In this document: in pieces, positions 3,105 to 59,855 of the stretch
How the letters are laid out: every line of letters begins with the position of its first letter
Position numbering within the stretch: the stretch's first letter is position 1
Source of the DNA: Malacoraja senta
Lineage: Eukaryota
DNA length: 60,000 nucleotides
Assembly (NCBI GenBank): GCA_038087875.1
Contig: CM075993.1
Location: forward strand, 1,056,001-1,116,000
Direction: 5' to 3'
The notes under the pieces: generated by a model
Seen by the model: the letters and a program-made list of their open reading frames with translations, nothing else
Told to the model about the DNA's origin: nothing
Databases searched by the model: none
Position numbers and translations under genes: made by a program

Positions 3105-5149
3105 GTTGTTGTTTAAACTGTAATGTTTTATTATTAATGTTTTATGTGTCGTTCTTAATTGTCACCGTATGTCGTGTTGTTACTTGCGAGCGGAGCACCA
3201 AGGCAAATTCCTTGTATGTGAACATACTTGGCCAATATTCATTCATTCATTCATCCAGCTTACAGCCTCCTGCAGAGAGCAAGAGATCTCTGTGTGGACC
3301 TAGCCACTGTGTCCTTGCCCCACCCACAAATGCCATGGTTTTACCTGCATTTCAGGACAATGACAGTGACTGGGTGATGAGTGAGGAAGGGTCTCGACCC
3401 GAAACCTCACCCGTTCCTTCTCTCCAAAGATGCTGCCTGTTCTGCTGAGTTACCCGCGTGTGGCACAGACATTGAACGGAAGGCTGTGGGTCTACGCTTA
3501 TGCTGTGTGCCCTCAGGATTCTCACACACCGCTGTGGTGGCTGTTTAAGTTTAATCTTTATGTAGTTTTGTATCTTGTTGCCTTTTTGGTATGATTTCAC
3601 TGTACCTCGGTACACGTGACAATAAAGGGCCATTGAACCATTGACATCTACAATAGTTCCATTAGAAGCAGATTATGTTCCATTAATCAATAAAATCATG
3701 ACTGATCAGTCTATCGTCGGTTTAAACCAGCATCTGCAGTTCCTTCCTACACAGACTGAATATATATTTGTGCTTGCGCCTAATTTCATTTTATCAAATA
3801 TCCATCGCTTCTGACAAGCCAGTGTCACCTTTGATGTAACAAAGAAACTAATTCATTTCACAGCTTAACTGTTAGTTAGTGAAAGTTAAAAAGATTCTGG
3901 AGTGAAAGCGACAGAATGTTTTGGCAGCTGTCGATGACATACAAAGATTGCAAATTACTTTTACTGCATCTGCAATCTTCTTTTCCTATATATATTCATT
4001 TTCTCCTTCTGTTTGATCTTGATTATTAGATTCTGGGCATCTTCATCTCCCAGAAAATGTATTTGCCAATTCTGTGCTCTCAGCCTCTACCGTTCCAAAC
4101 CCCTGCCACTCTGTCCATTGTTCGATAACTGATATTGTTTCAGAATATTTATCTGCGAAGAAAAACGCTGTGACACTAAAATATGTTATCTTCTTCTTTA
4201 CAAATGTGCTTTCTCTCCTGTTGTAATGGTAGCACAGGTTACTTCAACCTGCCTACATGTATGGCTGGTGTTACTGTTCTTGTGGTCTCCACGGATGGTG
4301 ATATCATCTCAGCTCTGCGGTCAGTGAAGAGATGACTTTGACTCTCTTCAGTCATGTTCTACTTCAACTCTTCTTCCATTGAACAAGCTCAATCATTTCT
4401 ACACACTCAGAATCTTCTCGTGGGTATCGCGCGCTCAATCAACTTCCTTGCAAGCCTTTTCAAACCTTTACCCAACATGGAACCATATATCTTCACAGGC
4501 TCTCTCACTCCTTCTCCCTCTTTCTCTATTCCATTTTCTCATTGCTGATAGTCATAGGGTGATACAGGGTGGAAACAGGCCCTTCAGCCCAACTTGCCCA
4601 TGCCGGCCAACAACTCCCAGCTACACTAATCGCACCTGCCTGCGCTTTGTCCATATCCCTCCACACCTGTCCTATCCATGTACCTATCTACCGGTTTGTT
4701 AAATGTTGGGATAGTCCCAGCCTCAACTACCTCCTCTGGCAGCTCGTTCCATACACCCATCACCCTTTGTGTGAAAAAGTTACCCCTCAGATTCCTATTA
4801 AATCTTTTCCCCTTCACCTTAAACGTATGAAAACCTACACGGGTCTTGGGGTGAACATACAAACTCCGTACAGACAGCACCCGTAGTCGGGATGGAACCC
4901 GGGTCTCTGGTGCTGTAAGGCAGCAACTCTACCGCTGCGCCACCAATCTTTCTGTAAAGTTCAGCACGTGAATCTTCACATGTAACCTTCACTCTGTAGT
5001 ATATCCACTCCACCTCAACTGCTTATCTCCCACCTTCTCTTCCAGATTCAGTTGAACCAGACTCAGCTACAGTACGTCCTGAATCTTTCATTCGACAGCC
5101 TTTCTCCAGTTGAGCAAAGTTGTTCTGCATGGCAGATGAAAATTTGCTT

Positions 5150-5470
5150 ACACACAATATCCGATTTGCCTGCCAGGATTTGCTGTTTTAGCGTCTTTGT
5201 GCGTCGAACTCTGATCTCTCAGCTTGAGGTTGGACAGTAAGCAGATGTGAAGCAATGTTTGATTCCACTTTGTTTCACAAACTGCTCAAACTGAATGAAT
5301 AGTGGATCATTATCCACGCAAAGTATATTCCCTTCAGAACTAGCTCCTTCTCTGCAGAATCTTCACCTTCATTACAACTTGTAACTGAGTGTAATCTTTC
5401 CACATTTGTGCCAGCAATTTGGTAAATACTGGTAAAAGCGCTCCATTTGGATGCTCCAGGTTCAATATCA
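5150..5470 (-). pseudogene. Fossil Ty3/Gypsy integrase core
   Basis: ASKW...VERLHS / ILCVDNDPLFIQFEQFVKQSGIKHCFTSAYCPTSS*...TKTLKQ resembles SDNGPQF...GIKH...YHP.SNG..ER...TLK. Confidence 0.65.
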
Positions 5471-5683
5471 ACTTAGTCACAAAAAGCTGGAGTAACTCAG
5501 CGGGACAGACAGCATCTCTGGAGAGAAATAATGGGTGATGTTTCGGGTCAAGACCCTTCTTCAGACTGGTTAGGGATAACGGAAACGAGAGATATAGATG
5601 ATGTGGAGAGATAAAGAATGAATGAAAGATATACAAAAAAGTAAGGATGATAAAGGAAACAGGCCATTGTAAGCTGTTAGCAG

Positions 5684-6078
5684 CAAAGATCCCATAGCGA
5701 GCAAGATAGACCACTCGACGAAAAAGACTTAGTACGGTCATGGGCAGATTCATGGGTAATTTTCGGCCCCATTTCCATAACCGGCTTCCATCTCCGCACC
5801 AAAGATCCCATAGGATACTAGTGCGGAGACGGAAGCCGGTTACGGAAACATCCTCGTAAAAATAAAAGTTATTTGGGAAAAATCTTCTCCTCATTTTCAG
5901 AATTTTAATTTATTAACACAAACTGTTCCCCCGCAACGTTGATTACACTGCGAGTCGGGTCGGGTCGGGTTACGGAAATGGATGAAAAAAAGGCCCACGT
6001 TCCGTTCCGTTGCGTACTACACGTCAGCCCATTGCATTTAGCAGGAGTGGTCTATCTTGCTCCGCTATAGGATCTTTG
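5684..6078. mobile_element. hAT-type MITE, copy 1
   Basis: ~33-bp TIRs (CAAAGATCC...ACCACTC) and an 8-bp TSD GTTAGCAG/GTTTGTAG; splits a PLE terminal fragment. Confidence 0.8.
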
Positions 6079-6309
6079 GTTTGTAGGGTGAAAATGAGAA
6101 GCTGTTGCTACTTGGGTGGGGGAGGGATAGAGAGAGAGGGAATGTCAGGGCTACCTGAACTGAGAGATTCATCTATACCGCTCATAATTTTATATATTTC
6201 TCTTAGGTCTTCCCTTAACCTGTAACATTTCAACAAAATCAATCCAAGCATGTCCAACCTCTCCCTTTAGCTCCAACCCTCTACTCCAGGCAGTTTTCTG
6301 GTAAATCTG

Positions 6310-7321: not shown

Positions 7322-10300
7322 TGAATGTGCGGCGATCGCTGGTCAGTACGGACTCGGTGGGCCGAAGGGCCTGTTTTCACGCTGTATCTCTAAACTAAAC
7401 TAAAAATTACTGCCCGACAGCTGAGTCTTTCTAGTGTCCTGTTTTTTGTTCCTCTTTCCATAGAGGCTTTCATCTAACTATCAGTGCAAGTTGTCTTAAA
7501 AGTAACGTTAGTACGGTGATTAAATTACTGGGCTAGTATTGAGAGGCTTGAATTATTGATTCAAGGACATGAATTCACATCCCACCACAGAATCTGGGAT
7601 AGTTAAGTTAAAATAATTTAATAAATGCAGAACTTTAAAAAGAACTAATTTATGTAATTAAACGGCCAGAGTGCTGCAATAATCCATCTTATTCTGTGTA
7701 TCTCAGGAGAGGGTAAGCTGCAATCCCATTGGGGTCTGGCAAATCTATGGCTCTGAATCTCAGAGTGCCAGAGATCAGGGTTCAATCCTGCCTTGGGTAC
7801 TGACCATATGGAGTTTACACTTCCTCTGTGTGACTGCATGGGCTCCCTCCGGGTGCTCCGGTTTCCTCCCAAATCCTAAACGATGACAGGTTTGCAGATT
7901 TAATTGGCCTCTGTAAATGCTACTTAGACTCTGTAGGGAACGGATGGGAAATTGGGATAACATAGAACTAGTGGTCGATGGTCAGTGTGGACTCGGTGGG
8001 CCGAATGGCCCGTTTCCATGCTGTATGTTTAAAATCAATCAATTCAGTCACAAATGGTCAGAACCCCCTCAACACTGCAAACGAGTTCGCCTGGACTTTG
8101 CACTCAAGAGCGGAAAATAAACCAGACTCCTCCTCGATTAGAAAGGTCCATCCGCTGGAGTTCAGCTATACTGTACTTCTGTTATTGTCAGAAGACACAG
8201 ATCAAGGCTGACTTTCTCTCTTCCTGTCCCAGAGCATCAAGTTAATTTTACAACAATTTCTATTCCAGTTGAGATCAAATAGCTCAGCTTAGACCAAAGT
8301 CTATCCCTCCCACAGAACATGACAATTCAACAGTCAGAGTTGATTCATTATATTACATTTAATGCTGTGCATTTGGGTCGCTTTTTTAATTCATAATGAT
8401 TGAATAACAGAATTTAAAGTTGAACGTAACGGATGTGTGAATCGCTGCTAGATATTTATGCCAATTGTATGGACGTCACCCATTCATTCTCTCCAGAGAT
8501 GCCGCCTGTCCCGCTGAGTTACTCCAGCATTTTTTATCCTTCTTCGGTGTCGGCTCGAAGGGCCGAATGGCCTACTCCTGCACCTATTTTCTATCTTAAC
8601 AAATTGCAACATCTCATATGTATCCGAATTAAACTCCATCTGCCATTCCTCAACCCATTTGCCCAGTTGATCGAGGTCCTTCTTCACCGTCTCATACCAT
8701 CTTTTACTGTCCTCAGCCCTGTGTCTCTGCCCAAAGTGGGTCAAGGTTGAGGGAGTTTTATTCTGTTAGTAGCCCTTGCTGTCCCCATCCTAGCAGTGTT
8801 GGACAGGAAAGCATTGAAGGATATAGGGAACGTTTCTCTGTATCCACTTGGATAGTCAATGCACATGGAATATCACAGTCTAGCTCACCTTTATCATACC
8901 TACTGTGGGAAGGACCAAGAATTTCTCAATTAAATTGGGATTATTTAATAATATAATTTAACATAAGTAAAACCATCCTTGAAATGCTACAAGTAGGAGA
9001 TTGCAAATAGGAGAATGCTGAATTCTCACGGCAAGATTACTGGGAGGAGAAAATGTATTGGATATAGGTATTACTCGAGATTGTGAAAGTGTTTCATTCT
9101 GCAGGTACTGTGAGCAATGAAAAGAGATATCTGTTTTAACTGGACATCTGATATTGTCAGTGACCCAGGTTTGATATCAGGAAATAAGTGAGGAAATGGA
9201 ACAGCTAGGAACACTCCAACAGCCAGCAGTAGCTCAATGGGCTGAAGGGTCTTTGTATACGCTGTAAGAATTAAGTGGCACAAAGGGGGGTTTTAAATGG
9301 TAGACATGATCCTTTGGGTCAGCGAGGAGCTGTGTGCCGTCACCTCACAAAAACACGTTATCCTTAACTGTCCGATGAGGATTAAAGATTCCCATTCCCC
9401 AGCCTGAAATATCTAAAAGGCCATCACTCCGGCAGGGTGCTTCATATATTCAAATCATGAATATCTATTCATTATTTGTTGAACAGCGGCTGTATTTAGT
9501 CAAATATGTTATTGATAAAGCAACGTGCCAAAGACTGGAGAAACATTAGAGAGGAATATGCAGAATACGGGCTATGTAATGACATAAACCTACACTGACC
9601 ATAAACCTACACTGAGTTACAGGATGCTGTAAAATGTCCACAGCCCTGACCTTACTGTACACGTGACACTGCATCATCTTTAATGGCTTTCTAATGCTGT
9701 CTAGTTAATGTCCGCGCTTTTAATATCCTGTTGTATCACAGCTCTTTGTTTCAAAGCCATTGAAGTAATAAGGTTCAGAAAGTATACGTGCCTCTGGAGG
9801 CCAGTTACAGTTCATATGGTTTTACATGTACACGTCCACCAGCAGTGGGGGTATATTTTCATGCAAGTCTACCAATCTATTCTCCTCACAGCCAGATTCC
9901 ATAGTCTGCACTGGAATGAATGGATGAGTTTATTGGCCAAGTATTCACATACAAGGAATTTGCCTTGGTGCTCCGCCCGCAAGTGACAACGGCATAGTGA
10001 CAAATGGGATGGAAATGTAGATCCCGCAATGCTGCACAGTCCACGTGTATCAAAGCAATTGCCCATCTCTACTGTTCCGTGATTACTCAAAATGAAGATC
10101 ACCACTAATTCTCCAGTACTGTGACAGAACGAGGATTCTCTGCATTCAAATACAGAATGTTTGGGGGCATCGCCAGGTAAAAATGTCTGACTTGCTTAAA
10201 AACAATAAGTACAGAGGTCTGAGATGGAGATGATGGCCAAACCAGCTTACTCTCTGGTCCCAGACCCTCAATCATTCATTACAATCGCTCCACTCCTTTA

Positions 10301-10564
10301 AACCGCGACTCCAGCAGCAGCATTTCCTACTCAAACTATAATATTTCAAAAACTATGTCTGAAGAAGGGTCTCGACCAGAAACGTCACCGATTCCTTCTC
10401 TCCAGAGATCCTGCCTGTCCCCGCTGAATTACTGCAGCTTTTTGTGTCTATCTCTGCTCTTCTTAATCTCGTCTCAGATCTGTTGATGCGCTAAACGTTA
10501 TTGCCTTTATCCTGTATCTGTACACTGTGAACACTCGATTATAATCATGTACAGTCTTTCCACG

Positions 10565-11209: not shown

Positions 11210-11473
11210 CACTGACTGGAAAGCACGCAACAAAAAGCTTTTTATTGTACTTTGGTACACTTGACAGTAAACTAAAATAAAATAAAATAAACAAGGATCC
11301 TGACCCGAAATGTCACCTGTTTATTTTCTCCAGAGATGCTGCTTGACCTGCTGAGTTACTCCAGCACTTTGTGTCTACCTTCTGTATAAACCAGCATCTG
11401 CTGTTCCTTTTTATTACAAAGTACAGAGGACTGTTTGAGATTTGATCTGAAGCATGAGATGCAAAAGAGAGTT

Positions 11474-12056: not shown

Positions 12057-13698
12057 TTAACAAAACAAAATGTATAATATGGTGTAGACAGCCCTATTGA
12101 TGGAAGAACAACGTAACGGCAATTATATTGAAAAGTGGAGATAATTATTTTCATAATGAAAAGTTTAGAAGGATTTTGGTAAGGTCAGGGGTCAACTCTT
12201 CCAGGGAATTGGCATGGTTTGGATTGGCTGAACTGTCTATGACTGGATGCTGTGTGTGGGAAGGAACTGCAGATGCTGATTTAAACCGAAGATAGACACA
12301 AAAAGCTGGAGTAACTCAGCGGGACAGGCAGCATCTCTGGAGAGAAGGAATGGGCGTTGCTCCGGGTCGAGACCCTTCTTCAGATGGATGTTGTATTTCA
12401 CAGGCTGCAACTCACGTGAAAAGAGCTGACGTCTGCATCCCTCTGCGACAGGCTGCACGTCATCCCTTCACACCAGCATCACTCCCTCGCACATACATGG
12501 CTCTGAAGCATATACGGCACACATCCCTGGACACAAACATCAAGCCCCCCATACACATACATCCCTTCACTGTACACAACCCTTCTCACATACATCACTC
12601 ACTTCCCACCCTTCACTCATTAGACTTGGCGCCTTTATGTCACAACCTATCTTCTATTTATATCTCCCACACTTCTTCCCATTCCAACACAAAGAATAGT
12701 GCAAGGGATGATTCATTCCCTGTAAGGAAGTTGGCAAAAAGAAAAGCTGACGCAGATTTGAAGCAGCAAATCTCTCATGTTTTGTCCTTACAGGCGAGCA
12801 GTCCTGAGCTGCTGGGCAGAGCAAGCTGTTAAATATTCATGACGAGACGTGATTTACAGTCAGCACCAGAAAACTATCTTGCACCGAATATTCTCAGCCT
12901 CGTGTGGGGCAGCAGACATTCAAATAACTTCACGTATAACCCCTGCATTCCCTCTCTCTCCCCATCCCTCCCCCACCCAAGTCATACCAGCTTCAAAATC
13001 GTCATAGACACATCTCTGGAGAGAAGGAATGGGTGACGTGAAGAGTCTCGACCCGAAATGTCACCCGTTCCTTCTCTCCAGAGATGCTGCCTGTCCCGCT
13101 GAGTTACTCCAGCTTTGTCCACCTTTGATTTAATCCAGTATTTACATTTCTTTCCTTCACATTCAAAGATGTCACATTAAGTCTCATTGTCTGTATTTGT
13201 TTTGACCTAAGAAACATCTAACAATGGCCTGTTTCCTTTATCATCATTACTTTTTTGCTTATCTTTCATTCATTTGTTCTATATCTCTCAACATCACTGT
13301 CTATATCTCTCATTTCCCTTTCCTCAGACTCTCAGTCTGAAGAAGGGTCTCGACGCAAAACGTCACCCATTCCTTCTCACCAGAGATGCTGCCTGTCCCG
13401 CTGAGTTACTCCAGCTTTTTGCGTCTATCTTCGGTTCAAACCAGCATCTGCAGTTCCTTCCTGCACAGACATTCCAGCCAGCTACATTTCTGATTTTAGG
13501 TTAGGAGTTTTGTAACATTTGTAGCATCCAAAGTCTCAGGCTAAAATATTCATCCAAGAAATCTGCTTCCTCTCATATCTCGATTTATCACTTTGTAAAA
13601 ACGCAGGAAGTAACCGCAGTGTGGAGTGAAGTTTGTGGTTGGATTGAGACCACAAGTATAAGTGTTAATGCAAAACGATAACATTTAGCATTGCAAGT

Positions 13699-13885
13699 AG
13701 ACAAAAAATGCTGGAGAAACTTAGCGGGTGAGGCAGCATCTATGGAGAAAAGGAGTAGGTGACGTTACGGGTCGATACCCTTCTTAGGGACTCGACCCGA
13801 AACGTCACCTTTTCTCCATAGATGCTGCCTCACCCGCTGAGTTTCTCCAGCATTTTATGTCTACTATCGATTTTTCCAGCATCTT
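13699..13885. mobile_element. Head-to-head palindromic PLE terminal insertion
   Basis: Inverted arms around a hammerhead remnant; degraded TSD beginning AACATTTAG. Confidence 0.75.
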
Positions 13886-14974: not shown

Positions 14975-15302
14975 GGAACTTTCTGGAACTCTCTGCCACA
15001 GAGGGTAGTTGAGGGTAGTTGAGGCCAGTTCATTGGCTATATTTAAGAGGGAGTTAGTTGAATGAAAGCAACTCTCTGGAACTCTCTGCCACAGAGGGTA
15101 GTTGAGGCCAGTTCATTGGCTATATTTAAGAGGGAGTTAGATGTGGCCCTTGTGGCTAAAGGGATCAGGGGGTATGGAGAGAAGGCAGGTACGGGATACT
15201 GAGTTGGATGATCAGCCATGATCATATTGAATGGCGGTGCAGGCTCGAAGGGCCGAATGGCCTACTCCTGCACCTATTTTCTATGTATCTATGTATCTAT
15301 GA
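14975..15302 (+). mobile_element. HER1/CR1 3' end with a junction duplication
   Basis: Same 3' UTR family as the other copies; the first ~85 bp is duplicated. Confidence 0.85.
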
Positions 15303-17240: not shown

Positions 17241-18319
17241 TTTCAATACATGTACAAGAAAGAAAGCTCTCGAAGGAAGCAAACAAAAACAAACATTGAA
17301 ACATGTGCCCTGAGATTCAAACTATTTCTCCAAGGCTCAACAGTTCGACCAATCATCAATTAACAGGATGACCATCTTGCAACATTATGCACACTGTTTA
17401 CAATTATTTTGCAGCGATCCAATAGAAATTATGCATTTAAGGTTAGTTTGCAAAACCACTATACATGTTATCAATTTAAGAGAAACAGGAACACCTGAAT
17501 CCCTTACCATCCTGCATATCAATCTGAGCCTAGACTGGCTGGCGCCATTCAAAGCCTGTAAAGTTCAGCTGACAAGCGTTAAGGTAATTCTGACAAGTGC
17601 AGGTTATGGTGTCTTTAATTTAGTCAATATTAACACTACATCCACAGAGATGGGTCTGGACTACACACAGACAGGATGTGTAGGAAGGAACTGCAGATGC
17701 TGGTTTAAACCGAAGATAGCCACAAAACTCAGCGGGACAGGCAGCATCTCTGGAGAGAAGGAAAGGGTGACGTTTCGGGTCGAGACCCATCTTCAGACAG
17801 CAGATGGCTTGGAATATACATGGGAGGATCAGGCAGGTCAGTGCATACAGTATGAAAGACCGCACAGGAGAGAGGGGTTGGTGTGACCTGAATTAGAGGT
17901 GGGATACAGGTTGAAATTTAATCACAAGGACAGACAGCTGAGAAATGGGACAGAGATGAATGGGCATGCAATGAATTCTGCGGGATTTGCCACGGAGAGA
18001 AATTGTTGCAATCTTCACACATTTTATAAATAATTTGAAATTGAGTCCAGGAAGAGAGGTGCTGTATAAAAGATACCAGTGAGGGTATGGCTCAGTAGAT
18101 GAAGTTGTAGGGAATTACTGAATCAAATCTATCATATACTGCATTACCCGTCCCAAGGGGAGGCTCCTCCAATCCGTCAAAGCCAGTGTCCTTTGTGCAG
18201 ATCCTCATGCACTACCATTGCGGACAGCTGAGTAGTCACTTCTAATAAATCTACGTGCCCATTCAGTGGTCTCTGATACTACAATTACTTCATCCTGAAC
18301 CAGCCATTTGTTTGGAATC

Positions 18320-21330: not shown

Positions 21331-21867
21331 TGTTACCTAACACTAGCCAGTGACCTTTCTTCTTTATTGCCGTGCCATGATCTACACCCTCACCTCACCC
21401 ACCTTGCCCCACCTCTGCCCAGATCAATACACAAAGATTATTACGCCATTCACAATTTATAATCCTTCATCACTATCCAACACTATCCAGCACAGTGCCA
21501 GAGACCCGGGCTTCAGAGACCTGACTACAGGTGCTGTCTGTATGGAGTTTGTACGTTCTCACTGTTACCGCGTGGTTTCTCCAGTTCCTCCCACATTCCA
21601 GACATATAGGTTTGTAGGTTAATTGGTTTCGGCAAAATTGTTCCTAGTGTGTAGAATCGTGCTAGTCTACGGGATAATAGCTGAGCATATCACACGAGAC
21701 CTCGCCAAAGGTCTTGCTAAAATCCATATAGACATCACCCACCAACCTTCCCTGCTCAACCCTCTTAGTTACCTCATAAAAATTCTAATAGATTAGGATT
21801 TGGTTCAATGGTCACAATTCACCACGGTCAGATGGATTCTCAACACATGCCATCTCAGTGAGGAGGT

Positions 21868-39800: not shown

Positions 39801-39946
39801 AAAATGCTGGAGTAAATCAGCGGGACAGGCAGCATCTCCGGAGAGAAGGAATGGGTGACGTTTCGGGTCAAAAGTCCGAAGAAGGGTCTCGACCCGAAAC
39901 GTCACCTATTCCTTTTCTCCAGAGATGCTGCCTGTCCCACTGAGTT

Positions 39947-44095: not shown

Positions 44096-44286
44096 AGAAA
44101 GTTAGTTGCCTGAATGCTACCCTCATAACGAAGGTGACATGGTTGGAGTGTTGGCAAGTTGTGAGGCTGATGGAGTGGCCACTGGAGGGCCTACAGTGAG
44201 TAGATCAGCTACAGCCTGCACCCGCTGCATTGGCCAGTGATGAAAGGAACCAACAGCATCACTCTGACCCAGGCTGACCGCTAACA

Positions 44287-44599
44287 GGGTGGCGCAGCAG
44301 TAGAGTTGCTGCCTTATAGCGCTCGCAGCGCCAGAGACCCGGGTTCCATCTCGACTACGGGTGCTGTCTGTACGGAATTTGTACGTTCTCCCCGTGACCG
44401 CGAGCGTTTACTCCCAGATCTTCGGTTTCCTCCCACACTCCAAAGACGTACAGGTTTGTGGGCTAATCGGCTTGGTATATGTGTAAATTGTCCCTAGTGT
44501 GTGTAGGATAGTGTTAGTGTGCGGGGATCGCTGGTCGGCGCGGACCCGGTGGGCCGAAGGGCCTGTTTCCGCACTGTATCTCTAAACTAAACTAAACTA
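44287..44599 (+). mobile_element. HE1-like tRNA-derived V-SINE, full length
   Basis: A box TGGCGCAGCAG, B box GGTTCCATC, central TGCTGTCTGT..GGA(G/A)TTTG..GTTCTCCCCGTG domain, CR1-like tail and (CTAAA)n. Confidence 0.88.
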
Positions 44600-45023
44600 C
44601 ATCATTGATCCAGTGCTGCGAGGACATTGTGAAAATAAGACATTACATATCTTCGTAGACCCATATCACAGACGGAATCATACAACACAAAAACAGGCCC
44701 TTCTGCCCAACTTGCCCCTACCATGCTAGTCCCACCTGCCCAGGTTTGGCGCATATCCCTCTAAACCTTCCCTATCCATGTACTCGTTCAAATGTCTTTT
44801 AAATGCTGTCACACGGCTTGAGACTTGAAACTGTGCCCTGGAACATGGTGCCTGCCTGCTGCTGATCCAGAAGGGGATCTATTACAATTGCTTCTTGGTT
44901 CTTGGTTTCTTGGTTTCTTGGTCCTCCAAAATATTCCAAATGGAATTTAAACTGGAAGTGGTGGAGGGAGGACTTAAGCCAGAAAGGGTTTTTGGGAGGA
45001 AAGAGCTACCTTAAATTTAGTTG

Positions 45024-45711
45024 TCTATGATCGCTCCCTCCGTAACTCCCTTGTCAATTCTTCCCTTCCCTCCCGTACCACCCCCTCCCCGGGTACTTTC
45101 CCTTGCAACCACAAGAGATGCAACACTTGTCCCTTCACCTCCCCCTCGATTCCATTCGACCTAAGTAGTCGTTCCAGGTGCGACAGAGATTCACCTGCAT
45201 CTCCTCCAACCTCATCTATTGCATCCGCTGCTCTAGATGTCAGCTGATCTACATCGGTGAGACCAAGCGGAGGCTAGGCGATCGTTTCGCCGAACACCTC
45301 CGGTCGGTCCGCAATAACCAACCTGACCTCCCGGTGGCTCAGCACTTCAACTCCCCCTCCCATTCCGTATCTGACCTCTCTGTCCTGGGTCTCCTCCATG
45401 GCCACAGCGAGCAACACCGTAAATTGGAGGAAATGCACCTCATATTCCACTTGGGCAGTCTACATCCTGGGGGCTTGAACATTGAATTCTCCCAACTCTG
45501 CTAGCCCTTGCTGTCCCCTCCCCTTCATCATCCCTCTGGTTGTCTCCTCCCATCCCCCAGCCCTCAGGCTCCTCCTCCGCCTTTTTTCCTTTTTTCCTTT
45601 CTTCTCCCCACCCCCTATCAGTCTGAAGAAGGGTTTCGGCCCGAAACGTTGCCTATTTCCTTCGCTCCATAGATGCTGCTGCACCCGCTGAGTTTCTCCA
45701 GCATTTTTGTG
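45024..45711 (+). mobile_element. Penelope-like element 3' part: GIY-YIG endonuclease + terminal repeat with hammerhead-like motif
   Basis: ORF 45178-45504 (FTCISSNLIYCIRC..C..IYIGETKRRLGDRFAEH...PGGLN). 17-bp TSD TACCTTAAATTTAGTTG at 45007-45023 and 45712-45728. Confidence 0.92.
45619..45655 (+). ncRNA. Hammerhead-like motif, variant B
   Basis: CAGT-CTGAAGA-A-GGGTTTCGGCCC-GAAA-CGTT-GCC (UUCG loop, GUU triplet). Confidence 0.65.
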
Positions 45712-46351
45712 TACCTTAAATTTAGTTGCATCTGGTTGGGTAACTATAGTAGGGTGGAGATTATTCCATGCTTTAATTGTGCGGGGGAAGAATGAATTGC
45801 TGTCCACATCTGTCTTGGTAGCTGGAATCACAAATTGGATCGAATGCCCTCGTCTGCTCCTAATTGGTTTGGGTTTGGTGTAGGTCTTGTAATCTATGTC
45901 GAGCTGACCATTTAACATTTTGTAAAAACAGGTAAAACGGTGAGCTTCACATCTGTCTTGGTGAGGGTTCCATCCCAGAGAATTCAGAAGTTTGGTAACA
46001 CTCGCTTCTCTCTCATAGGTGTCAGTAACAAATCGAGCTGCCTGTCTTTGGACACGTTCGATGGAAGAAATGTTTTTATTTGTGTATGGGTCCCATGCTG
46101 CAACTGCGTAGTCCAAATTAGGTCTAACGTGGGTGAAGTATAGCTTCTCCTTGACAGAAGTTGAACATTCTTTAACTTGCGAATGAGAGTTAGATTCAGC
46201 TCTTGGGGCTAACGGACTCAACGGGATATGGGGAGAAAGCAGGAACGGGGTACTGATGATCAGCCATGATCATATTGAATGGGGGTGCTGGCTCGAAGGG
46301 CGGAATGGCCTACTCCTGCACCTATTTTCTATGTTTCAAGTGTATGTATGT

Positions 46352-46677: not shown

Positions 46678-47786
46678 TCATAATATAATTGGATAGCATG
46701 CACGACAAGCTTTAACTCACTGTAACTCAGCAATAATGACAATAATAAATGAAACAGACATTTAAAAAAATGATGGTTTTACCCACTCTGGACATTTACC
46801 AGACAAGTTGAATTGGTTCTACACGTGGATGCTTTACATAATCCCTTTGATTTAATTCCCGTACTCTTATTAACAATAGTTAGCATTAGACAAATCCACC
46901 TTCCAAGGTCTGTATGTGCCACACTCGTGATACATTACTAGAGCCTGTTTTAAGTAAGAACCTTGTTGCTTATCTGAATTATATACTTATTGGAATAACC
47001 TGTATGAAATGCATTGGAAATTTCAGTCCTTCCTTCCACTGAACAGCTGGTAAATTTAGCAAGATAAAATACATTGGCATAGTCCTGTTCTCATTTAATT
47101 AAGAGCACAGTAGACATTGAGACACCAGAGAATGCAGATGCTGAAATCTTGAGCCCACTATTAGTTACTTCTCTATCTGAAAAGCCTTGTCGGCAATTCA
47201 AACATCCATTTGGCCCAAGCACTCTACATTGGTTGGAAAGAACTATAGATGCTGGATTAAATCGAAGGTAGACACAAAATGCTGGAGTAACTCAGCGGGA
47301 CAGGCAGCATCTCTGGAGAGAAGGAATGGGTGACGTTTCGGGTGGAGACATTGGTGATGGTGTTCTAAGCCTCCCCCTCATCCCTCTTTATCCTATTCCA
47401 TCAGCAGAGCCTTCAATTCCTCTCTTTATCTAAATTCACCCTTTATTCTGCTTGCTTCAAATACTTAGTTCCTTCATATCTTTTCACACTCAGTGTATGC
47501 CACCCCCACTTCTACTTTTATTTGATCCCAGCCTGCAAGTTGATTAAATCTTCCCAAGACGCTGGCTCCGGGCCAGCTGGATCTCTTGTGGACGCAGCCC
47601 AGACCATCACACAAACCAATCTACCTTCCTGAAGAAGGGTCTCGACTGAAACGTCACCTATTCCTTTTCTCCAGAGATGCTGCCAGTCCCGCTGAGTTAC
47701 TCCAGCTTTTTGTGTCTATCTTCGGTTTAAACCAGCATCTGCGGGGTGGGAGATTGCAACCTTCACGTGGTCCACCCTGTTTCGAC

Positions 47787-49111: not shown

Positions 49112-51758
49112 CTTTGGGAGAAGGACAGTTGGTGTTCTCAGAGGCTGAGGGGACATCTAAATGATATCAAAGCAGATGAGCCCTGTCAAGGGGATCAAGG
49201 GAAGAGCAATCTGACAGTAATCTGCTTTCAGCCGTGGCATAACGTCACCATTCTGCTGATGACAGGAGGAATGGCCAGGTCACTGCCACATGACAGCAGC
49301 TCAGAGGCCAGTGATCCAGGCTAATATCCGGCTATTGACACCACAACAGAAAAATAGGAGCACATAGAGTGAACAAAGCTGTCCTTGACCTCTGAACTTA
49401 TACACATCGCAATATTAATACTCAGGACAGACGAGTGCCGAATAAGAGTGCACGCAGATAGTGTCTTCAGACTGAGGTCAGATTACTTAAGTATGAAGAA
49501 TGCCGATACACCTTCTCCTGAAATGCTGCCTGGCCCGCTGAGCTACTCCAGCCTTATGTGTCTTCTTTTGTATACCAGCACCTGCAGTTCTGTGTTTCTA
49601 CTCTTTACTTAAGTACGTATTTGATAGATTGAACAACACAGCAGGGATACACGTTAACACTATCCTACACACAGGGCAATATTTACACTTACACCAATCC
49701 AATTAACCTACAGACCTGTACATCTTTGGAGTGTGGGAGAGAACTGAAGATCTGGAGAAAACCCACGCAGGTCACGGGGAGAACGTACAAACTCCGTACA
49801 GACAGCACCGGTAGTCGGGATGGCACCCGGTGTCTGCAAGGCAGTAAGTAGCTGTACCGCTCCAGCCCACCAAGTCCACACCACTTTTGCATCCACTCCC
49901 TACACACTAGCGGCAACTTAAAGAGGCCAATCAACCTACAAATCTGCACATATTTGGAATGCGGGAGGAAACTGGAGCACCCGGAGGAAACCCACTCAGC
50001 CTGAGGGTCACGATCGCTGGTTGGTGCGGACTCGGTGGGCCGAAGGGCCTGTTTCCGCGCTGTATCTCTAAACTAAACTAAAGCGTGCATACTCCACATA
50101 GACAGCACCCATGGTTAGGATCAACTCGGGTCTATGGCACTGTGAGGCAGTAGCTCTACCAGCAGCACCACTGTGCAGCCCATTTACAAATGTTCACTGG
50201 CAACAAACTAAAACCAGCACTTCCACAAAATACTCCAGAGATGCTGCCTGTCCCGCTGAGTTACTCCAGCCTTTTGTGTCTATCTTTGGTTTAAACCAGC
50301 ATCTGTAGTTCCTTCCTACATAGAACAGGTCAACACAGGAACAGGCCCTTTGGCCCACAATATCTGTGGTGAACATGATGCCAAGATAAACTAATCTGCC
50401 CCCATGCGTTTGTTACCCCTTCATTCCCTGCATATCCATATATCTTTCCAAAAGCCTCTTACACACACACACCACTATGGCATCTGCCTCCACCAGTGTG
50501 TTCCAGGTACCAACCACTCTCTGTGTCAACAAATGTTACAATGGATTTTTACCTTCTCAACTTGGCAGTCTTTCAAAGTTCAGATCCTGTGTGTTTCTAG
50601 ATTGCTAAGTTGTTTAATTTACCAATTCAACTGCTCCCTGTTACCTTGGCTCATGAGCAGGGAAAGGTCAAGAAATGCCCATGGAACTCTTTACATCTCT
50701 TCTGAAAGTGAACGGATTAGTTTTTAATGTGCCTGGCTGTTCTTATATCTTTTTTCAATGACTCGAGACGAGAGCAGATCTATGCATGTAGGTGCATGCA
50801 GCGAGAGATTTTAAGATAAGGTGATAAGCTGACATATTAAATCCAAAATAGTACCGAGGTGTCACAGTGCAGGCTTAAGAAGCTGTGAGATGACAAGACA
50901 CACCTGCTGGATCATTAACACAGTCCATGATTCACAAAATCAGCTGCCACACATGAACCATGCCAAGCAGCTTGCTTTTCTAAATTCCTATTATAGTAAT
51001 CAGAACTTCACAGGCATAAGGGGTGTTCACAGGCCCAATGGCACAGCTGTTAGAGCTGCTGCCTCACAGTGCCAGAGACCCGGGTTCAATCCTGACCCCA
51101 GGTGCTGTCTGTGTGGAGTCTGCACATTCCCCCCGTGACTGCGTGGGTTTTCTCCGGTTTCCTCCTACATACCCAAGTTAGAAGGTTAATTGGCTTCTGT
51201 AGATTGTCTGTAGTGTGTAGGGAGTGAGTGCCAATGTGAGATAACATGGAGCTGGAGTGAGCAGTGGTCGGCATGGACTGGATGGGTTGAAAGGCCTGTA
51301 ACCATGCTGTTTCTCTACATTGAAACAAAACACTGGGGCCGCATCACACAGTCACGTTACACTATAATGCGATCAAGGATTTGTTATCTGTAAAACCAGT
51401 CACAGTATTAGGTCAATGCCCTGTTTCAGTTAAGCAATTTGGATGACATGCTCGTCCATTTAAAAGATGAGAGAAAGGATGATATCTTTGCTTTAAACCA
51501 CACAGAAGGTCAATTTGTGACATCAAACTGACCAAGGATATTTTCCGCCAAGCTCATGCGTTGCAGAATGAACGGAATCAGTTGCCGTATCCCGACTTTA
51601 TCTCGCAGATGGTGTTAATCAGCACATGACCGGAAATCTCCTGCAGTTTAGTTCAGTTTATTGTCCCGTGTACCGAGGTACAGTGAAAAGCTTTTGTTGT
51701 GTGCTAACCAGTCAGGAGAAAGACAATACATGATTACAATCAAGCCATTTACAGTATA

Positions 51759-52146: not shown

Positions 52147-53789
52147 TAGATAGCTACATGATAAGGGAATAAGGTTTAGTGCAAGGTAAAGCCAGCAAAG
52201 TCTGATCAAGGATAGTGTGAGGCTCACCAATGAGGTATATAGCAGTTCACCGCTGCTCTCTGGATACATTTACAAAAGAAGTTTTCTACTGAACGAAATA
52301 AAGGCATAAATTTGCAATCATCACAGATCAATCACTTTGGATTGCTGAGAGCTGATGGACTATGCCCCAAGCCCATTCCAGCTCCTGGTTGATAATATGG
52401 TAGTTAGCAAATTCTGTCCCTGCATCATAATGTGTTTCATATTCAAACATAAATGCTGACTCGTTACATCATTAACATAATAATTTGTATTTATGTCACA
52501 CAGCGCTTTTACAGCCAATAACACTTTGGAGTACCATCACTATTATAATGACAGAAATGTGAGAACGAATGTTTGTGCAGCAAATTCCTGCAATTAGCCA
52601 CAGAGAGAAGCTTGGGCAGGCACGGACTTGATTCCTTGGAGCATAGGAGGGTGAGGAATGATCGAAGGATGTAGTTGAAGGCAGGTACAATAACAACATT
52701 TATAAGACATTTGGACAGGAACATGGACAGCAAATGTTTGGAAGGATATGGGCCAAATATGGATAAATTGGCATAAAAGCTGAGGCATTTTGAAAGGCAT
52801 GAACGAATTGGGTTATATGACTATCACTCTCCAAGTGCTCTATGAATAACAGGACTTAACAGTGGAGCAACACTGAAGTGCCCATGTCATACAAGACAAG
52901 AGGTTAACCATACCTCTTATGATTTTTACATGTCAATAAGGTCACCCCTTTCCCTCATACAGTTCAAAACAGAAAGAACTCCTAGCCTACCCAACCTCTC
53001 CCTGTAACTCCACCTGCAAGTCAAGGTAACATCCTGATGAATTTCTTCTGCACCCTTTCCAAATTAACGGCATCCTTTCCATAGCTGGGTGACTAGAATG
53101 CATGCAGTACATCAAGTGTGATATAGACAACACCTATGATAAATCTGGATACTTGGGAGGTAGTATACAGGGAATGATGAAGCATACTGCATGTTTGAAT
53201 TGGAAAAATCAGCCATAAACTCTAATTGCTGGAAGGTGCATGGTCAAAGGCACTAGAGACCAGATCTAGGATTAATTTCTGCTGCTGAGCAGCATGCTAA
53301 AGAACATACTGGAAGAAATTTGCTCGGCAAAGTAGTGGGATTTGATAAATGCCAGTGAATGTGCCAAAAACATTGTTGACCCACTAAACGAGAGTAGCAT
53401 CCCCCCAGTGACGTTGCCCGACATCACTGTCAGAGGAAGCAAAGAGAGGAGAGCTGTGGGAACAACTCAGCGGGCCAGACAGCATCTGTACAGAGAAATT
53501 ACCAGTCAACATTTTGGATCGGGACCCTACATCCAGACTGAAAGAAGAGGGTGAGTAGGTGGGACACAGAGATAGGGAGGTGGTGTGAAGCAAGTGGTTG
53601 CAAGGAATATGTGGATGGTGGTCGGGAGGGGGTTAGCTGGCATTTGGTTCTCTCAACGTGGCTTCCTCAACATCAATGACAACACACCCAGACTAGACGA
53701 CCACTTTGCCAAGACCTTAATTCTGGCCACTGTGGTTATCTGGATCTCTGGGTTGCCAGCCATTTTAATTCCCCTTTCCATTCCCCCAT

Positions 53790-54150
53790 TGTTGTATTGT
53801 TGTATATCTTTATTGTCATTTCCTGAGTATTCACATACCCAGAGGAAACAAAAAAACGTTCCTCAACCAGTGTCCATTTCAGTGTGCAGTAAAAAATAAA
53901 TAGAAGTAAAAATACATATATCATGAACAAATTAACACTCTACTCTACTAAACATCAACAGGCGTTCCGATCGGCAGCGGCACGACAGTGGCTCTGCTGC
54001 AGTGTGTCCAGGTTGGTGGTTGGTGCACGATACTTTGGCAGGGGACAAAGTCCGTTTATCAGTCTTATAACCTGCGGGAAGAAGTTGAGGAGCATCCTGC
54101 TGGTTTTGCACCTAATGCTCCGGTACCTCTTCCCAGATGGCAGGATGGAG
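53790..54150 (-). mobile_element. Third Rex1/Babar family 3' end
   Basis: FSILPSGKRYRSIRCKTSRMLLNFFPQVIRLIN. Confidence 0.8.
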
Positions 54151-54279
54151 AACACTGACCTGTCCGTCCTCAGCCTCCTCCACTACCAGGGTGAAGCCAA
54201 TTGCAAATTAGAGGAGCAGCACCTCGTATTCTGCCTGGGTAGTCTACAACCCAGCACTGATGTCCATAATTTCAGGTAA
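54150..54279 (+). mobile_element. PLE GIY-YIG C-terminal remnant
   Basis: TDLSVLSLLHYQGEANCKLEEQHLVFCLGSLQP. Confidence 0.8.
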
Positions 54280-54700
54280 CAATAGACAATAGACAATAGA
54301 CAATAGGTGCAGGAGTAGCCCATTCGGCCCTTCGAGCCAGCACCGCCATTCAATGTGATCATGGCTGATCATCCCCAATCAGTACCCCTTTCCTGCCTTC
54401 TCCCCATATCCCCTGACTCCGCTATTTTTAAGAGCCCTTTCCAGCTCTCTCTTGAAAGCATCCAGAGAACCTGCCTCCACCGCCCTCTGAGGCAGAGAAT
54501 TCCACAGACTCACCACTCTCTGTGAGAAAAAGTGTTTCCTCGTCTCCGTTCTAAATGGCTTACTCCTTATTCTTAAACTGTGGCCCCTGGTTCTGGACTC
54601 CCTCAACATCAGGAACATGTTTCCTGCCTCTAGCGTGTCCAAACCCTTAACAATCTTATATGTTTCAATGAGATGCCCTCTCATCCTTCTAAACTCCAGA
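54280..54700 (-). mobile_element. HER1/CR1 LINE 3' end (TTGTCTA-tail subfamily)
   Basis: RMRGHLIETYK...RVVSLWNSLP; (CAATAGA)n repeat on the plus strand. Confidence 0.88.
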
Positions 54701-55386
54701 GCCTGGGCACCCTCTGTCCCTTTCTCTCGCCCCCTGTCTACCCTAGTTCTCACACCCCCAGTTCCCCATTGGCCTGTTTCTTCTCTTCCTTTACCCCATC
54801 TATTCCATCTGTCCACCTTCCACACACGTCTCCCACCAGATCCTTCACCCCTACCATCCCTCTGTTGTTCCCTTCTGCCACCACCCCTGCTCATTCATTT
54901 CAACCTTTGCCTTTCTTTACCATCAGATTCCAGAACCTTCCGTCTTTTACTCTCCACCTATCACCTCCCAGCCTCCACCGCTATCTCCACCCTTCCCTCC
55001 CCGACCTCACCATTATCTGCCCTTCCTGACATATCCGTCTCTTGCTTGCTAGCTTCTTCCCAACCTCCCCTCCCACCTCAATATCCTGGCAACTTCCCCT
55101 CTACTCTTTCCATCTAGGTGAAGGGTCCCAACCCAAAACATCAGCTGGAGTAACAAGGAACTGCAGATGCTGGGTACTTGAACAAAATACAAAGTGCTGG
55201 AGTAACTCAGCAGGTCAGGCAGCATCTCTGGAAGCAACGTTGTGGACTGTCCAATTCCATCCACAGGTGTTGCCTGACCCGCTGAGTTCCTCCAGTAGTT
55301 CTATTGTTGCCATGGAATCGAGCGTCTGCATCCACTGTCAAAGGAAGAATCTACCCACTAGTCATCTCAAAGAGAAACAGTGTCTT

Positions 55387-55816: not shown

Positions 55817-58362
55817 AGCCACTACATTGCGGCAGAGTTGACCTTCCTCAACAGGAATCAGCACCCAAAGGAGAAACTATTTGTGGTTGCAGAGGTCAGT
55901 AACTTTGGTTGAGAAGGGATTAAAAATATTGCAACAAAAGATGAATTGAAAAAGGATTTCTTGACAATATCTCACATTAGATATTTATGATCTCTTACTA
56001 ACAGGGCAATGCCAAATGTTCGCTAAGTAGGTACTCATCGTAGTCCTGCTTTCTGTGACACAGTAGCCTGATCTGAACTTAAGTCTGTAATAAGCTAAAT
56101 CCACTATGAAAGAAAAACAGAGAAAAATAACAAAGTCAATGGCTTCACTCAACTAATTACTCTGTTGTTAACATATGGTGTGAATCTAGGGCTCTGCAAA
56201 GGATCATCTGTACAGCCTGCCTTAATCCACATGATAATTGTTTTTTGTGCTCTAAGAGGCCTTGTTTGTTTTCCTCCACTAAGGTGAGAGGGCAAAGTTT
56301 AAAGGAGATGAGTGGGTCAAGTAGTATTTTTTTTACACTGAGGGTGGTGAGTGCCTGGAATGCATTGCCTGGATTGGTGGTTGAAGCAGATACTTTAGTG
56401 AACTGCAGATACCCTAAGATAGACACAAAAAGCTGGAGTAACTCAGCGGGTCAGGTGGCATCTCTGGAGAGAAGGAGTAGCGATGTTTCGGGTCTCTGAA
56501 AAGAAGAGTCTCGACCCAAAATGTCACCATCAGGCAAAGACCAAGCAATGAAAAGATGGGAAATGTAGAATCTATAAGTCCAGAAAAAGTGTGAGAGGCA
56601 GCCTAAGGCAACAGGACCCCTCTGAAGCGGCCGATTCGGAAACTCCGTGCCGCTGAGAGTGTTCTTCCGTTCGAGGGCCTGAAACATCGGGCCGCCATTT
56701 GCAGTGGCTGCGGAGGCCTCAATAGGCCCTGACCACGGGTGAACACGAGGAAGAGGACTGAAGTTTGTAGCCTTCTCTCACAGTGGGAAATGTTGATTCC
56801 GTTATGGGGGGAGATGTTTTTATGTTCTATTTTAAATTCTATAGTGTTGTGTTCATCTTATTTGTGTGCTGCATGGTAACTCAAATCTCACTGCACCAAT
56901 TGGTGTAAGTGACAATAAATGTCCTTTGTCCTTTGAATCTTCAATGTTGTTTTAGATATACTGGCTTTCTTCTAAATTCCAGAGACTACAGTTCAATCTT
57001 CCTCAATGTCTCCTCATCAAAACTCTACCATCTCAGAAAGTATACAAACACGAGACAAGGAGCAGAAGAGGACCAGTGTGCACCTGAATGCGGTCCTAAC
57101 ATTCAATCCAGTGAATTCACTATGTTTTGAGTATCCTCGTGTAGGTACAGGGACTAGTAGGTACAGGGACCAGAGACTGATCCATACACAATAGGTGAAA
57201 TGGTATCAGACTGAAGCCCTGTACAATCTCAGCAAGCCTTCATAACTTTTGCATTCCAATCTGTTTGCAATAAAGGCTAACAAACAATTTGCCTTACTCT
57301 TTGCGTGTGAGCAGTACAGACTGAGGAAGGGTTGATAAAGACATGGAGAGACACAAAGATGCAAAGGAGAAGGCATAGAAAATAAAGACACAAAGGAGGC
57401 AGATATGTAAGAGACACACATGAAATAGTTCTGAAAAATGTATTAAAACTTAATGTACAACCCACTAATAATATTCACTTAAGATGCAGTTTGAAATCCA
57501 ATTGGCTCCTTGTACACTGTGACAATTCTTGATCCTTACTATCCAGCTGTCAAAAGATCAAACCCTGGTACAGTTCTATTCAGGAGAGCTTATAATTAGC
57601 AGAGAATGGTGCCAGTTATGCCTTGCCTGGTTCATAATTCATGGGCTGCCCTCACTGCCTGAGAATGAAATTAATATAGTGCAAGTGAAACTCAGTGATT
57701 AGAAATTCAATTAGTTGTGTAATTGAAATGCTTGCTCCCCTTTCAAAAGGAAAAGCAGAGCTACCAGGCACCTGAGCACCCCAGCAAATGGTTGCACCAT
57801 TATGTCCCTGCGCTATCAGATTTACATCAGGATATTGAGCATAAACTCACAGAGAAATGCTCGGCTAATGCTAGCAAACATTATAATTCACCTCTTCAGA
57901 ACTGACACGTATAATCTAGCCATCAGTCTATAGAAAAAAAGATGCATTGAGATATAATAAGCATTTTTATGCAGTGCAGTATTTAAAAGTAAGGCAGGTA
58001 GTACTAACACTGAGTTGAAACTTAACCATCTGAGACAGAGGAGGCTTTAGCATTTAAATTCTTTGTCTGCTGACTGACTGATTGATGCATCTTTCCAATG
58101 GACGGTAAAGATTAAGAGACTGACAAATAGGCATCTACTTAGTGTAAGAGGCTAATCTGCTGTGCGGGCTTGAGGAGCACAGGGAAAGCAGCAAGGCTCA
58201 TTCACACGTTGACTCCTCAGACTCCTGGCAGCAACAGTTTGAGGCTTCCAGCGATAAATCCGTCGAGGAGTGAGGCAGGATCAGACACACGGCAATATTC
58301 CCCCATTCAATTCTGGATTCTGCCTTTTTCTAAAGAGTTGGATTGTCCATTTATCTCTTAAG

Positions 58363-58528
58363 GTTGGATAGCCCCCCACTGGGGAATCCTGCTTCAACTG
58401 ATCAGCTGCTCCCAGCCCATGTTGCAAGAGGTTGTGTGCGCAGAGGTCAGATCTTCCTCTGAGGTGTAGAATGAGCAGCTCTCCAAGAGAGTTATCAGTC
58501 AGCCCAGAGTTGGAGGACAGCCAGACAG
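58363..58528 (+). other. Candidate exon in unique sequence
   Basis: Pyrimidine-rich TAAG acceptor and CAG|GTACGT donor; ATG at 58471 gives MSSSPRELSVSPELEDSQT. No homolog recognised. Confidence 0.25.
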
Positions 58529-59659
58529 GTACGTAAAAGACAGAATGAATGAGTATTTGTCTGAGAGAATGAAAGAATGAAACAATACGATAGAACTTTA
58601 TTTATCTCAGGAGGGAAATTAGTCTGTCAACAGTCATAAAACACAAGAGACTACATGAAACATGAAATTTAAGTGACGTGGGAAGTCCAGGATTTGGGGT
58701 GCGCAATGACGAGAGAGCAAATGTTCGAGGTTAACAGAAATGAAGACAGAGAGGACGAGAACATCTATGAGCAGGTATGAGAGATGGCTAACAAGGATAG
58801 CCATACAAATGGAAGAAGTGCAAGGACTGGCAAGTAGCTGGAAAGCCAGTGGAATGAAAAGGAGAGCAAGCCAGAAGCAAGGGCGACGGAAGGTAAAACA
58901 GTAAAAGATCTGAGAAAATGTGGGTGAAAGACTGATAGTCTCAGAAAAACGTGTTATTGGAGAGGAGACAGACAGATAGATGCACACACCTAGAGACAGA
59001 GTGACCGAGACCAAGATTCACTGAATTTGGTGATGATGTTCCTGTATTTGAAGTGCAATTTTGTCAAGGCTCAAATAATGGTAAACAGAGCAAGGAAGTG
59101 GCATGTTGGTAAAGGTACTACAAACACGTATGAATATTACAGCAGATTCTTGAAGCAGAGAAACATTCAAAGAATAATTAGGTGTAAATGTACTGTGTGG
59201 GCCTACAATCTAAAAAAAACATTTATGTAATAAACCCCTGGCCCTTTCGGGAACTGAAACCTACTAAATTGCATCCAGTCTGCTTTGGAAAATAATTTTA
59301 AGTATAAAATATCTATAAAACAAAGATTATTGAAATTTCACATCGAACAAAATACTGCTCTTAATTATACCCATTTATAGTATGAACCTAGAATTAGAAT
59401 GTTCATCCATTGATTATCATGGATCTATTTATGTATTAATGGTATAAATATGAATGTTGAGAGCGCACAGTTATATACTGATGTGAGACAGGCTCCAATA
59501 ATTTTGCATAAATCTCGCTGCAGCAAGACGTATCTGTAATGATACTGAAGACTCCAAGATGCCCTTCAGCTATTATCTTCAAGCTAAATTCCTAATTTTT
59601 TTGGAGTCACAGGAAGAACCACCTTTTGAGACTCTGAGAGAATCACATGTTTATCACTG

Positions 59660-59855
59660 GTAGGCAAAAATGCTGGAGAAACTCAGCGGGTGAGGCAGCA
59701 TCTGTGGAGCGAAGGAATAGGTGACGTTTCTTCAGAAGGGTCTCGACCCGAAACGTCACCTATTCCTTCGCTCCATAGATGCTGCCTCACCCGCTGAATT
59801 TCTCCAGCATTTTTGTCTACCTTCGATTTTTCCAGCATCAGCAGTTCCTTCTTAA
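59660..59855. mobile_element. Head-to-head palindromic PLE terminal insertion
   Basis: ~71-bp inverted arms (59660-59730 and 59750-59820) with a 15-bp TSD ACATGTTTATCACTG. Confidence 0.85.

Follow-up and report, generated by a model that had tools for sequence, protein, structure and literature searches.

A skate repeat family that ends endonuclease relics

The window analysed here is a 60,000-nucleotide stretch of the genome of the skate Malacoraja senta (GCA_038087875.1, contig CM075993.1, positions 1,056,001 to 1,116,000, forward strand). It contains a dispersed family of short repeats that carry a minimal hammerhead ribozyme motif and that also form the 3′ ends of relics of Penelope-like elements (PLEs), in which the motif lies in a pseudo-long terminal repeat (pLTR) downstream of coding sequence for a GIY-YIG endonuclease (EN). 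A profile built from 18 window copies returned 49 matches, 45 of them at the threshold of E<1e-3, and none in the reversed window that served as control. The 45 matches make up 8.3% of the window, at a density of about one stub per 1.6 kb, and have a median pairwise identity of 81% (maximum 95%). A preliminary description of this DNA had proposed such a window-wide, Penelope-derived family, and the family is real: besides the 45 matches, motif searches place a copy at all 11 positions that the description had cited. An exact 38-nt pattern searched in metagenome and viral contigs gave 0 loci in each.

The matches were grouped by hand into 37 loci. Offsets are counted from C3 of the reference copy (43998), which puts C17 at +27, and sites 1 and 2 are the two preferred 3′ ends, at about +95 and about +132 from C3. 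The loci and their component features are as follows, with a dot where no single strand was assigned; UTR denotes untranslated region, LINE long interspersed nuclear element and MITE miniature inverted-repeat transposable element.

3381-3756 (+): short copy, split by a later insertion into 3381-3453 and 3709-3756
5451-6182 (-): long copy reaching up to the EN stop region, with a MITE-like insert at 5696-6078
8473-8548 (+): short copy starting at +23, within the core
10357-10453 (+): short copy starting 2 nt before C3 and ending at tail site 1
11290-11412 (+): decayed short copy
12243-12384 (-): short copy starting 1 nt before C3, full tail
12925-13470 (+): long copy, pLTR and full tail, with nested inserts
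13011-13163 (.): head-to-head pair nested within the long copy 12925-13470
13696-13884 (.): head-to-head pair; arm 1 ends at site 1, arm 2 enters the tail; weak target duplication (score 9)
17675-17798 (-): short copy, core intact, full tail
19027-19493 (.): compound insert of a minus arm split by a LINE 3′ end, a plus arm and a second plus unit in tandem
19594-19725 (-): decayed short copy starting 3 nt before C3
21851-22026 (+): short copy, full tail, 17-bp target duplication (1 mismatch), 10-nt inverted tail-site-1 stub at the 5′ junction
23227-23589 (-): long copy, 3′ UTR/pLTR and full tail
24697-24790 (+): short copy starting at +7
26249-26547 (+): old copy, 48-bp terminal direct repeat (85%), period 251, core decayed
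26588-26827 (-): pLTR-bearing copy (26602-26813), 14-bp target duplication (1 mismatch)
29308-29407 (+): decayed short copy
30155-30282 (+): short copy ending at site 1, core intact, with a 14-bp target duplication and an inverted stub of 4 nt
37895-38018 (-): short copy, intact core, 14-bp target duplication (1 mismatch) touching the 5′ end
39074-39126 (-): fragment of tail only
39801-39980 (.): head-to-head pair in which a LINE 3′ end interrupts the minus arm
40275-40310 (-): tail fragment, the far end of an inverted repeat with 39947
41498-41641 (-): copy jumping from EN-coding sequence directly into stem II (internal deletion)
42698-42890 (.): old head-to-head pair
43500-44095 (+): long PLE relic with the C-terminal part of GIY-YIG (43506-43778), 3′ UTR/pLTR, hammerhead and short tail (site 1)
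43995-44028 (+): reference minimal hammerhead motif (consensus in the PMC4209133 supplement)
45007-45728 (+): 5′-truncated PLE (45024-45711) with exact 17-bp target duplication, C-x4-C-x2-C linker, GIY-YIG, pLTR and intact hammerhead (second subfamily)
45169-45501 (+): GIY-YIG endonuclease fragment, 111 aa, Pfam PF01541, E 6.7e-5
47232-47349 (-): short copy starting at +10
47629-47744 (+): short copy starting at C3
49483-49615 (+): decayed short copy, 11-bp target duplication
50233-50329 (+): tail copy without hammerhead, starting at +42
53459-54280 (.): old relic, its pLTR/hammerhead on the minus strand and its EN piece, split by an insert, on the plus strand (5′ inversion)
55020-55330 (.): rearranged old cluster of a plus pLTR/hammerhead piece, a minus tail and a plus tail
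56397-56528 (.): head-to-head pair, plus arm very short
59645-59870 (.): head-to-head pair enclosed by a single 15-bp target duplication, the minus arm ending at site 1 (+93) and the plus arm at site 2 (+132)

Minimal hammerhead motif

The reference copy has the 5′ side of helix I at 43996-43997, C3 at 43998, A9 at 44004, an extra A at 44005, stem II at 44006-44017, G12 to A15.1 at 44018-44021, the palindromic C-G at 44022-44023, U16.1 at 44024 and C17 at 44025. Of 43 rows kept for the core analysis (two mis-registered fold-back rows were excluded), 19 span C3 to H17, and 6 of these 19 are intact in the core, the four stem-II pairs, the pairing palindrome and H17. The majority letters fit the minimal hammerhead ribozyme, with CUGANGA, an extra base between positions 9 and 10.1, G10.1-C11.1, GAAA, a palindromic 15.2-16.2 pair and NUH. 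Stem II, earlier drawn as 5 bp with a two-base loop, is corrected to 4 bp with a four-base closing loop, and helix I comprises 2 bp in all seven long copies. The minimal type I hammerhead with a palindromic stem III that the preliminary description had recognized is borne out by the 15.2-16.2 pair, and the extra A is a published feature: both the conserved base between 9 and 10.1 and the palindromic pair are described in PMC4209133.

The marks of a canonical type I hammerhead, a full helix I and a loop 1-loop 2 contact, were not found, helix I being 2 bp in 7/7 long copies and an Rfam search, which had been suggested as a check, giving 11 matches at E≤10 with none to a hammerhead family. Its top match, MIR2118 (under the gathering score), is the hairpin of a head-to-head pair.

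Letters are better conserved in the core (265/280, 94.6%) than in the tail (1991/2285, 87.1%; p 1e-4) or in its best-kept part (90.8%; p 0.04). This pattern would fit selection acting on the parent elements. It also favours a population of non-LTR retrozymes, in which copies that lie in tandem or dimerise undergo self-cleavage at C17, giving monomers that form circles and are re-inserted by PLE reverse transcriptase (RT), an alternative that we consider highly unlikely. Among 16 indel-free copies, stem positions pair in 93.8% of cells, and the changes are only one-sided, from U-A to U-G; two-sided covariation was sought in these copies and none was found, with a score no higher than that of shuffles, which counts against retrozymes, as does the 2-bp helix I. 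Moreover, described retrozymes have canonical rather than minimal hammerheads (PMC7229834), minimal motifs cleave poorly, dimers included (PMC4209133), and 8 of 9 predicted Xenopus dimers failed to cleave (10.64898/2026.07.22.740005). Single-strand folding of six copies did not predict the hammerhead fold; only 13325-13470 stood out (z -2.5), owing to a tail hairpin. The predicted fold of a free dimer likewise contains no hammerhead, which is weak evidence.

Relics of the parent element

The GIY-YIG fragments at 43500-44095 and 45024-45711 had been reported to end in the same repeat, and at both, coding sequence is followed by the repeat. Translation of 45169-45501 yields a GIY-YIG domain with a Pfam match above the cut-off, and upstream of it, in another frame (frame 45026), lies the C-x4-C-x2-C linker; a CX2-5CxxC linker joining RT to EN is a mark of the Neptune and Nematis clades (PMC8557442). 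Two further EN pieces are present in the window, at 43506-43778 (69% identical to the first) and at 54154, making three. The closest database proteins of the EN piece come from the cartilaginous fishes Leucoraja, Rhincodon, Mobula, Stegostoma and Hypanus, several of them with RT sequence upstream. Related proteins of 820-1100 aa with RT matches exist, and the search for longer homologues returned no full-length protein named as cartilaginous fish.

With GIY-YIG, linker, target duplications, inverted pLTRs and tail all present, the parent appears from its sequence to be an EN-bearing (EN+) PLE of the Neptune/Nematis type. The Neptune type is likely for the skate element, because Neptune and Poseidon are the only PLEs found in vertebrates in the preprint 10.64898/2026.07.22.740005. 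Penelope derivation and high copy number, both proposed at the outset, hold.

Two relics are rearranged. At 53459-54280 the EN piece is inverted relative to the pLTR, resembling a twin-priming 5′ inversion, and at 41498-41641 (-) an EN-to-stem-II jump across a short shared word has removed the ribozyme's first half along with the 3′ UTR. A reading frame through the tail, considered as a possible start of an open reading frame (ORF), proved on inspection not to be conserved between subfamilies.

Long and short copies intermix in a tree of 34 rows (25 short, 9 long; 98 columns, 2 branches well supported), with 9 label changes against a shuffled mean of 8.2, and a single clade of long copies is rejected (p-AU 0.0002). 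This intermixing of short copies with long pLTR- and EN-bearing ones argues against retrozymes. It also bears on a dedicated non-autonomous family, similar to short interspersed nuclear elements (SINEs), that would have its own 95-135-nt master genes and borrow PLE protein. The sharp 5′ boundary and the 25 short rows against 9 long would suit such a family. However, every subfamily has both short and long members, the short copies at 37904 and 30172 are 95% identical to the EN-bearing 45602, the long copies form no clade, 14 of 45 copies start further downstream, and a tRNA-like head was looked for and none was found; we therefore regard a SINE-like family as very unlikely.

Insertion anatomy

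Target duplications of 11-17 bp (score ≥11) flank 7 of the 37 loci, compared with 0.23% of 1332 mismatched pairs used as control, and the truncated element at 45024-45711 is bounded exactly by one of 17 bp. The 3′ ends (n=45) fall at +90..103 (13), +104..112 (1), +113..125 (14), +126..131 (0) and +132..141 (12), with 5 shorter. There are eight head-to-head pairs. In the pair at 59645-59870 both arms lie within one 15-bp duplication and end at +93 and +132, and at 21851-22026 a 10-nt inverted stub from the first tail site precedes a full-tail copy. Mobilisation by PLE RT, as first suggested, is supported by the duplications, the pairs and the spacing of about 37 nt between the two 3′ end sites, the PLE 'tail'.

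The identity with the ends of EN relics, the target duplications, the head-to-head pairs, the two preferred 3′ ends and a pile of 5′ ends before C3 together point to PLE insertion. The repeats are very probably truncated terminal pieces (pLTR and tail) of several subfamilies of a GIY-YIG-bearing PLE, likely inserted by its EN and RT from RNA with an uncut hammerhead. In an anole PLE, the target is cut on both strands and each strand is extended; the tail is defined by two internal sites at which RT starts, mutation of the hammerhead leaves insertion normal, and none of the RNA reads reported ends at the cleavage site (PMC11167929). By analogy with this element (PAc), the PLE enzyme would cut both strands of the target, and cDNA would be primed internally at the two tail sites and copied toward the 5′ side of the RNA. 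One cDNA would give a single stub and two cDNAs a head-to-head pair with a tail on one side, whereas a jump to a second RNA would give a partial tandem. Long copies may derive from read-through RNA that contains the 3′ pLTR, and the inserted stubs would be mostly inert and decay neutrally.

No copy among 45 starts at the cleavage site (+26..+30), and the uncut motif is retained; a head-to-tail dimer occurs at 1 of 37 loci, with the cores of both units damaged so that neither passes the intact test. The separate retrozyme-like RNA population that had been proposed is not supported by these counts or by the intermixing of short and long copies. Also against it, hammerhead-to-EN depth ratios of 5.4 and 10.1 in comparison runs guessed to be RNA are near the 4.8 of a run guessed to be DNA, contig depth not being copy number. 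In favour of retrozymes are the dimer itself (110 bp; 19283-19490, units 89% alike), a 251-bp 1.2-mer (26249-26547), head-to-tail joints in contigs of a relative, and a preprint that derives vertebrate non-LTR retrozymes from pLTRs and reports them in one chondrichthyan (10.64898/2026.07.22.740005). At 26249-26547 the tail runs directly into the pyrimidine-rich upstream part, resembling a 1.2-mer of a pLTR-only unit; with its decayed core, it looks like the best retrozyme-like candidate in the window. The retrozyme reading fails on two testable defining features, tandem complete hammerheads and a canonical type I hammerhead.

The 5′ boundary

Of 45 5′ ends, 23 fall within the 21 nt from -12 to +8 at the front edge of the ribozyme, 8 lie further upstream and 14 downstream. 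In -12..+8 the per-base stop rate is 0.063, compared with 0.0047 in +9..+90 (p ~1e-13). An upstream pyrimidine tract (≥0.75; background 3.2%) is present in 7/7 long copies and in 0/10 correctly placed short copies, and target duplications abut the boundary at 30173 and 38006. Because the tract is confined to long copies and duplications abut the boundary, the boundary is taken as a real end.

Comparison runs, consisting of contigs and of guessed RNA or DNA nature, were compared with 43470-44110. In the relative X9, loose 5′ ends with unrelated flanks pile at 43994, 43995 and 43996 (1066, 1631 and 1481 contigs), and tail site 1 is joined back to 43993-43996 in 84 contigs. The consensus of a further 2071 loose ends, at 43993, is pyrimidine-rich, and these ends resemble other subfamilies. 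Before the boundary, G is the plurality letter in X9 (43995, 43996) and X16 (43995), and A in X15. One further run, X22 (Hi-C reads), was too distant for comparison, with 1459 of 1531 reads less than 90% alike.

In the least certain step of the proposed mechanism, the 5′ pile would mark the capped start of a transcript that the pLTR initiates at the initiator-like TCAGT, and the commonest stub would be a run-off cDNA, complete at 95-135 nt, and not a random truncation. That the pile marks where the template RNA has its 5′ end, making the stubs integrated run-off cDNAs, seems to us almost evenly balanced, leaning slightly against. TCAGTC at the boundary fits the initiator consensus. An initiator-like TCACT has been described in a rotifer pLTR (PMC3846280), and an untemplated G is a sign of a reverse-transcribed cap in L1 and SVA (PMC3287187); the G before the boundary is a lead only in this respect.

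Within a PLE origin, the pile could instead reflect stalling or template switching of RT at the ribozyme front. The site could be the TCAG/CTGA quasi-palindrome or a 3′ splice site made up of a pyrimidine tract and CAG, which a protein may bind. This alternative competes with the start-site step alone, and we rather doubt it while giving it real weight. All seven long copies have the tract and six of them CAG before position -1, head-to-head junctions fall in the same region, and in D. virilis an intron ends at the 5′ end of helix I (PMC4209133), with a start site 46 nt before that intron (PMC2377424). Against it, no upstream exon is common to the short copies (best pair score 9), no GT..AG joint is present among the joints listed (15 of 688), and 43997, the end expected of a splice site, is not among the six X9 loose-end places listed. 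A shared spliced first exon was itself sought in the short copies and rejected at that same best score, after one of 11 rows had been dropped as mis-placed.

Several observations weigh against the PLE insertion reading or its start-site step. Neither a full-length element nor an RT gene lies in the window, so that the donor itself is not observed, and a strong target duplication is missing at 30 of 37 loci, locus edges having been set by eye after some duplications had been seen. The 5′-end statistic uses profile-trimmed ends, a window picked after seeing the data and the arms of one insertion counted separately, with a profile that is weak upstream of C3; the tree has 98 columns and 2 well-supported branches. 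In X9, C17 (44025) is joined back to 43993-43995 in 6 contigs, alongside variants with 2-7 letters between, giving hammerhead-only tandem duplications; such short tandems, which exist in the relative, could in some cases act as retrozymes. For the start site in particular, the G preceding the boundary has no more than a plurality (agreement 0.32-0.36), the boundary bases are equally readable as a 3′ splice site, and RNA-like runs show no pile of ends, these runs being contigs and as such unable to show RNA ends.

Implications

The stubs are a natural experiment on how PLEs build pLTRs, tails and inverted ends, and on the role of the hammerhead. At one stub every 1.6 kb, thousands of junctions genome-wide would be available for testing the two-site internal priming known in vitro, and the same junctions could tell whether the template is ever cut at C17 and locate the RNA 5′ end. 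More broadly, and with somewhat more doubt than belief, we suggest that the prevailing PLE insertion among cartilaginous fishes would be a strong-stop-like cDNA that integrates directly. The pLTR promoter would start at TCAGT at the hammerhead front edge, and RT would prime internally 95 or 132 nt downstream and run off at the cap. If true, thousands of stubs would record where the PLE RT reaction begins and where it ends in vivo and show an uncut template, and a jump from the RNA 5′ end to a second tail site would build partial tandems and occasionally retrozyme-like arrays.

Neighbouring elements

The window also has numerous SINE copies and LINE 3′ ends that carry short-repeat tails (families D9, D11, D12, D14, D17; D16, D20), for example at 15070-15299 and 44287-44600. 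They seem to resemble the shark HER1/CR1 LINE and HE1 SINE. Two LINE ends are inserted in PLE stubs (19125-19267 and 39572-39801), and two stop-free stretches, 352 codons at 36665-37720 (+) and 386 codons at 35481-36638 (+), appear to be remnants of LINE ORFs. A 390-bp MITE-like element with inverted ends of ~30 bp is present in two copies (5696-6078 and 28251-28641, 92% identical), one of them within a PLE relic. At 39947-40309 lies a 363-bp imperfect inverted repeat (72% self-complementary), the outer ends of which are PLE tail pieces and the inside unrelated.

Comparison with known systems

These repeats belong to a class known since 2014, when Cervera & de la Pena (PMC4209133) described minimal hammerheads that were mostly solo copies 'probably related to truncated PLEs', with pairs on opposite strands as well. 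The extra A, the zero-loop palindrome and the solo copies identify the motif here as the published minimal hammerhead of PLE pLTRs. Shared with those motifs are CUGANGA with one extra base, G10.1-C11.1, GAAA, NUH, genome-wide solo copies and opposite-strand pairs, and in the PMC4209133 alignment fish and Xenopus are listed with forms of the type CUGAAGAA...GAAA C G U C. Helix II is 4 bp here compared with 7-8 in Schistosoma, and a helix I of 2 bp also occurs in Culex, D. virilis and Oikopleura. The supplement file that was searched showed no entry for a shark or skate. A literature search, with Repbase, Dfam and subscription papers outside its range, found neither a skate or shark study of PLE hammerheads nor a description of PLE stubs as strong-stop products.

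Non-LTR retrozymes (PMC7229834; 10.64898/2026.07.22.740005) have in common with the present repeats a type I hammerhead, no coding capacity, pLTR ancestry and dispersed monomers, but consist of tandem units, each with a complete and originally canonical hammerhead, and circular RNAs, in contrast to the single damaged dimer among 37 loci here.

Neptune/Nematis-type EN+ PLE units (PMC8557442, PMC3846280, PMC11167929) show 5′ truncation, partial tandems, inverted pLTRs and an optional 30-40-bp tail. C-terminal GIY-YIG, the CX2-5CxxC linker, target duplications, an inverted arm on the 5′ side, a one-sided tail and two 3′ end sites about 37 nt apart are all shared, and the inverted pLTR with a tail on one end only (PMC8557442, PMC3846280) is the same arrangement as in the head-to-head pairs. 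The family is otherwise an ordinary member of the PLE-stub class, and its clustered ends are the useful part: unlike the EN+ units described in these sources, most copies here are only 95-135 bp long, with 5′ ends piled before the ribozyme.

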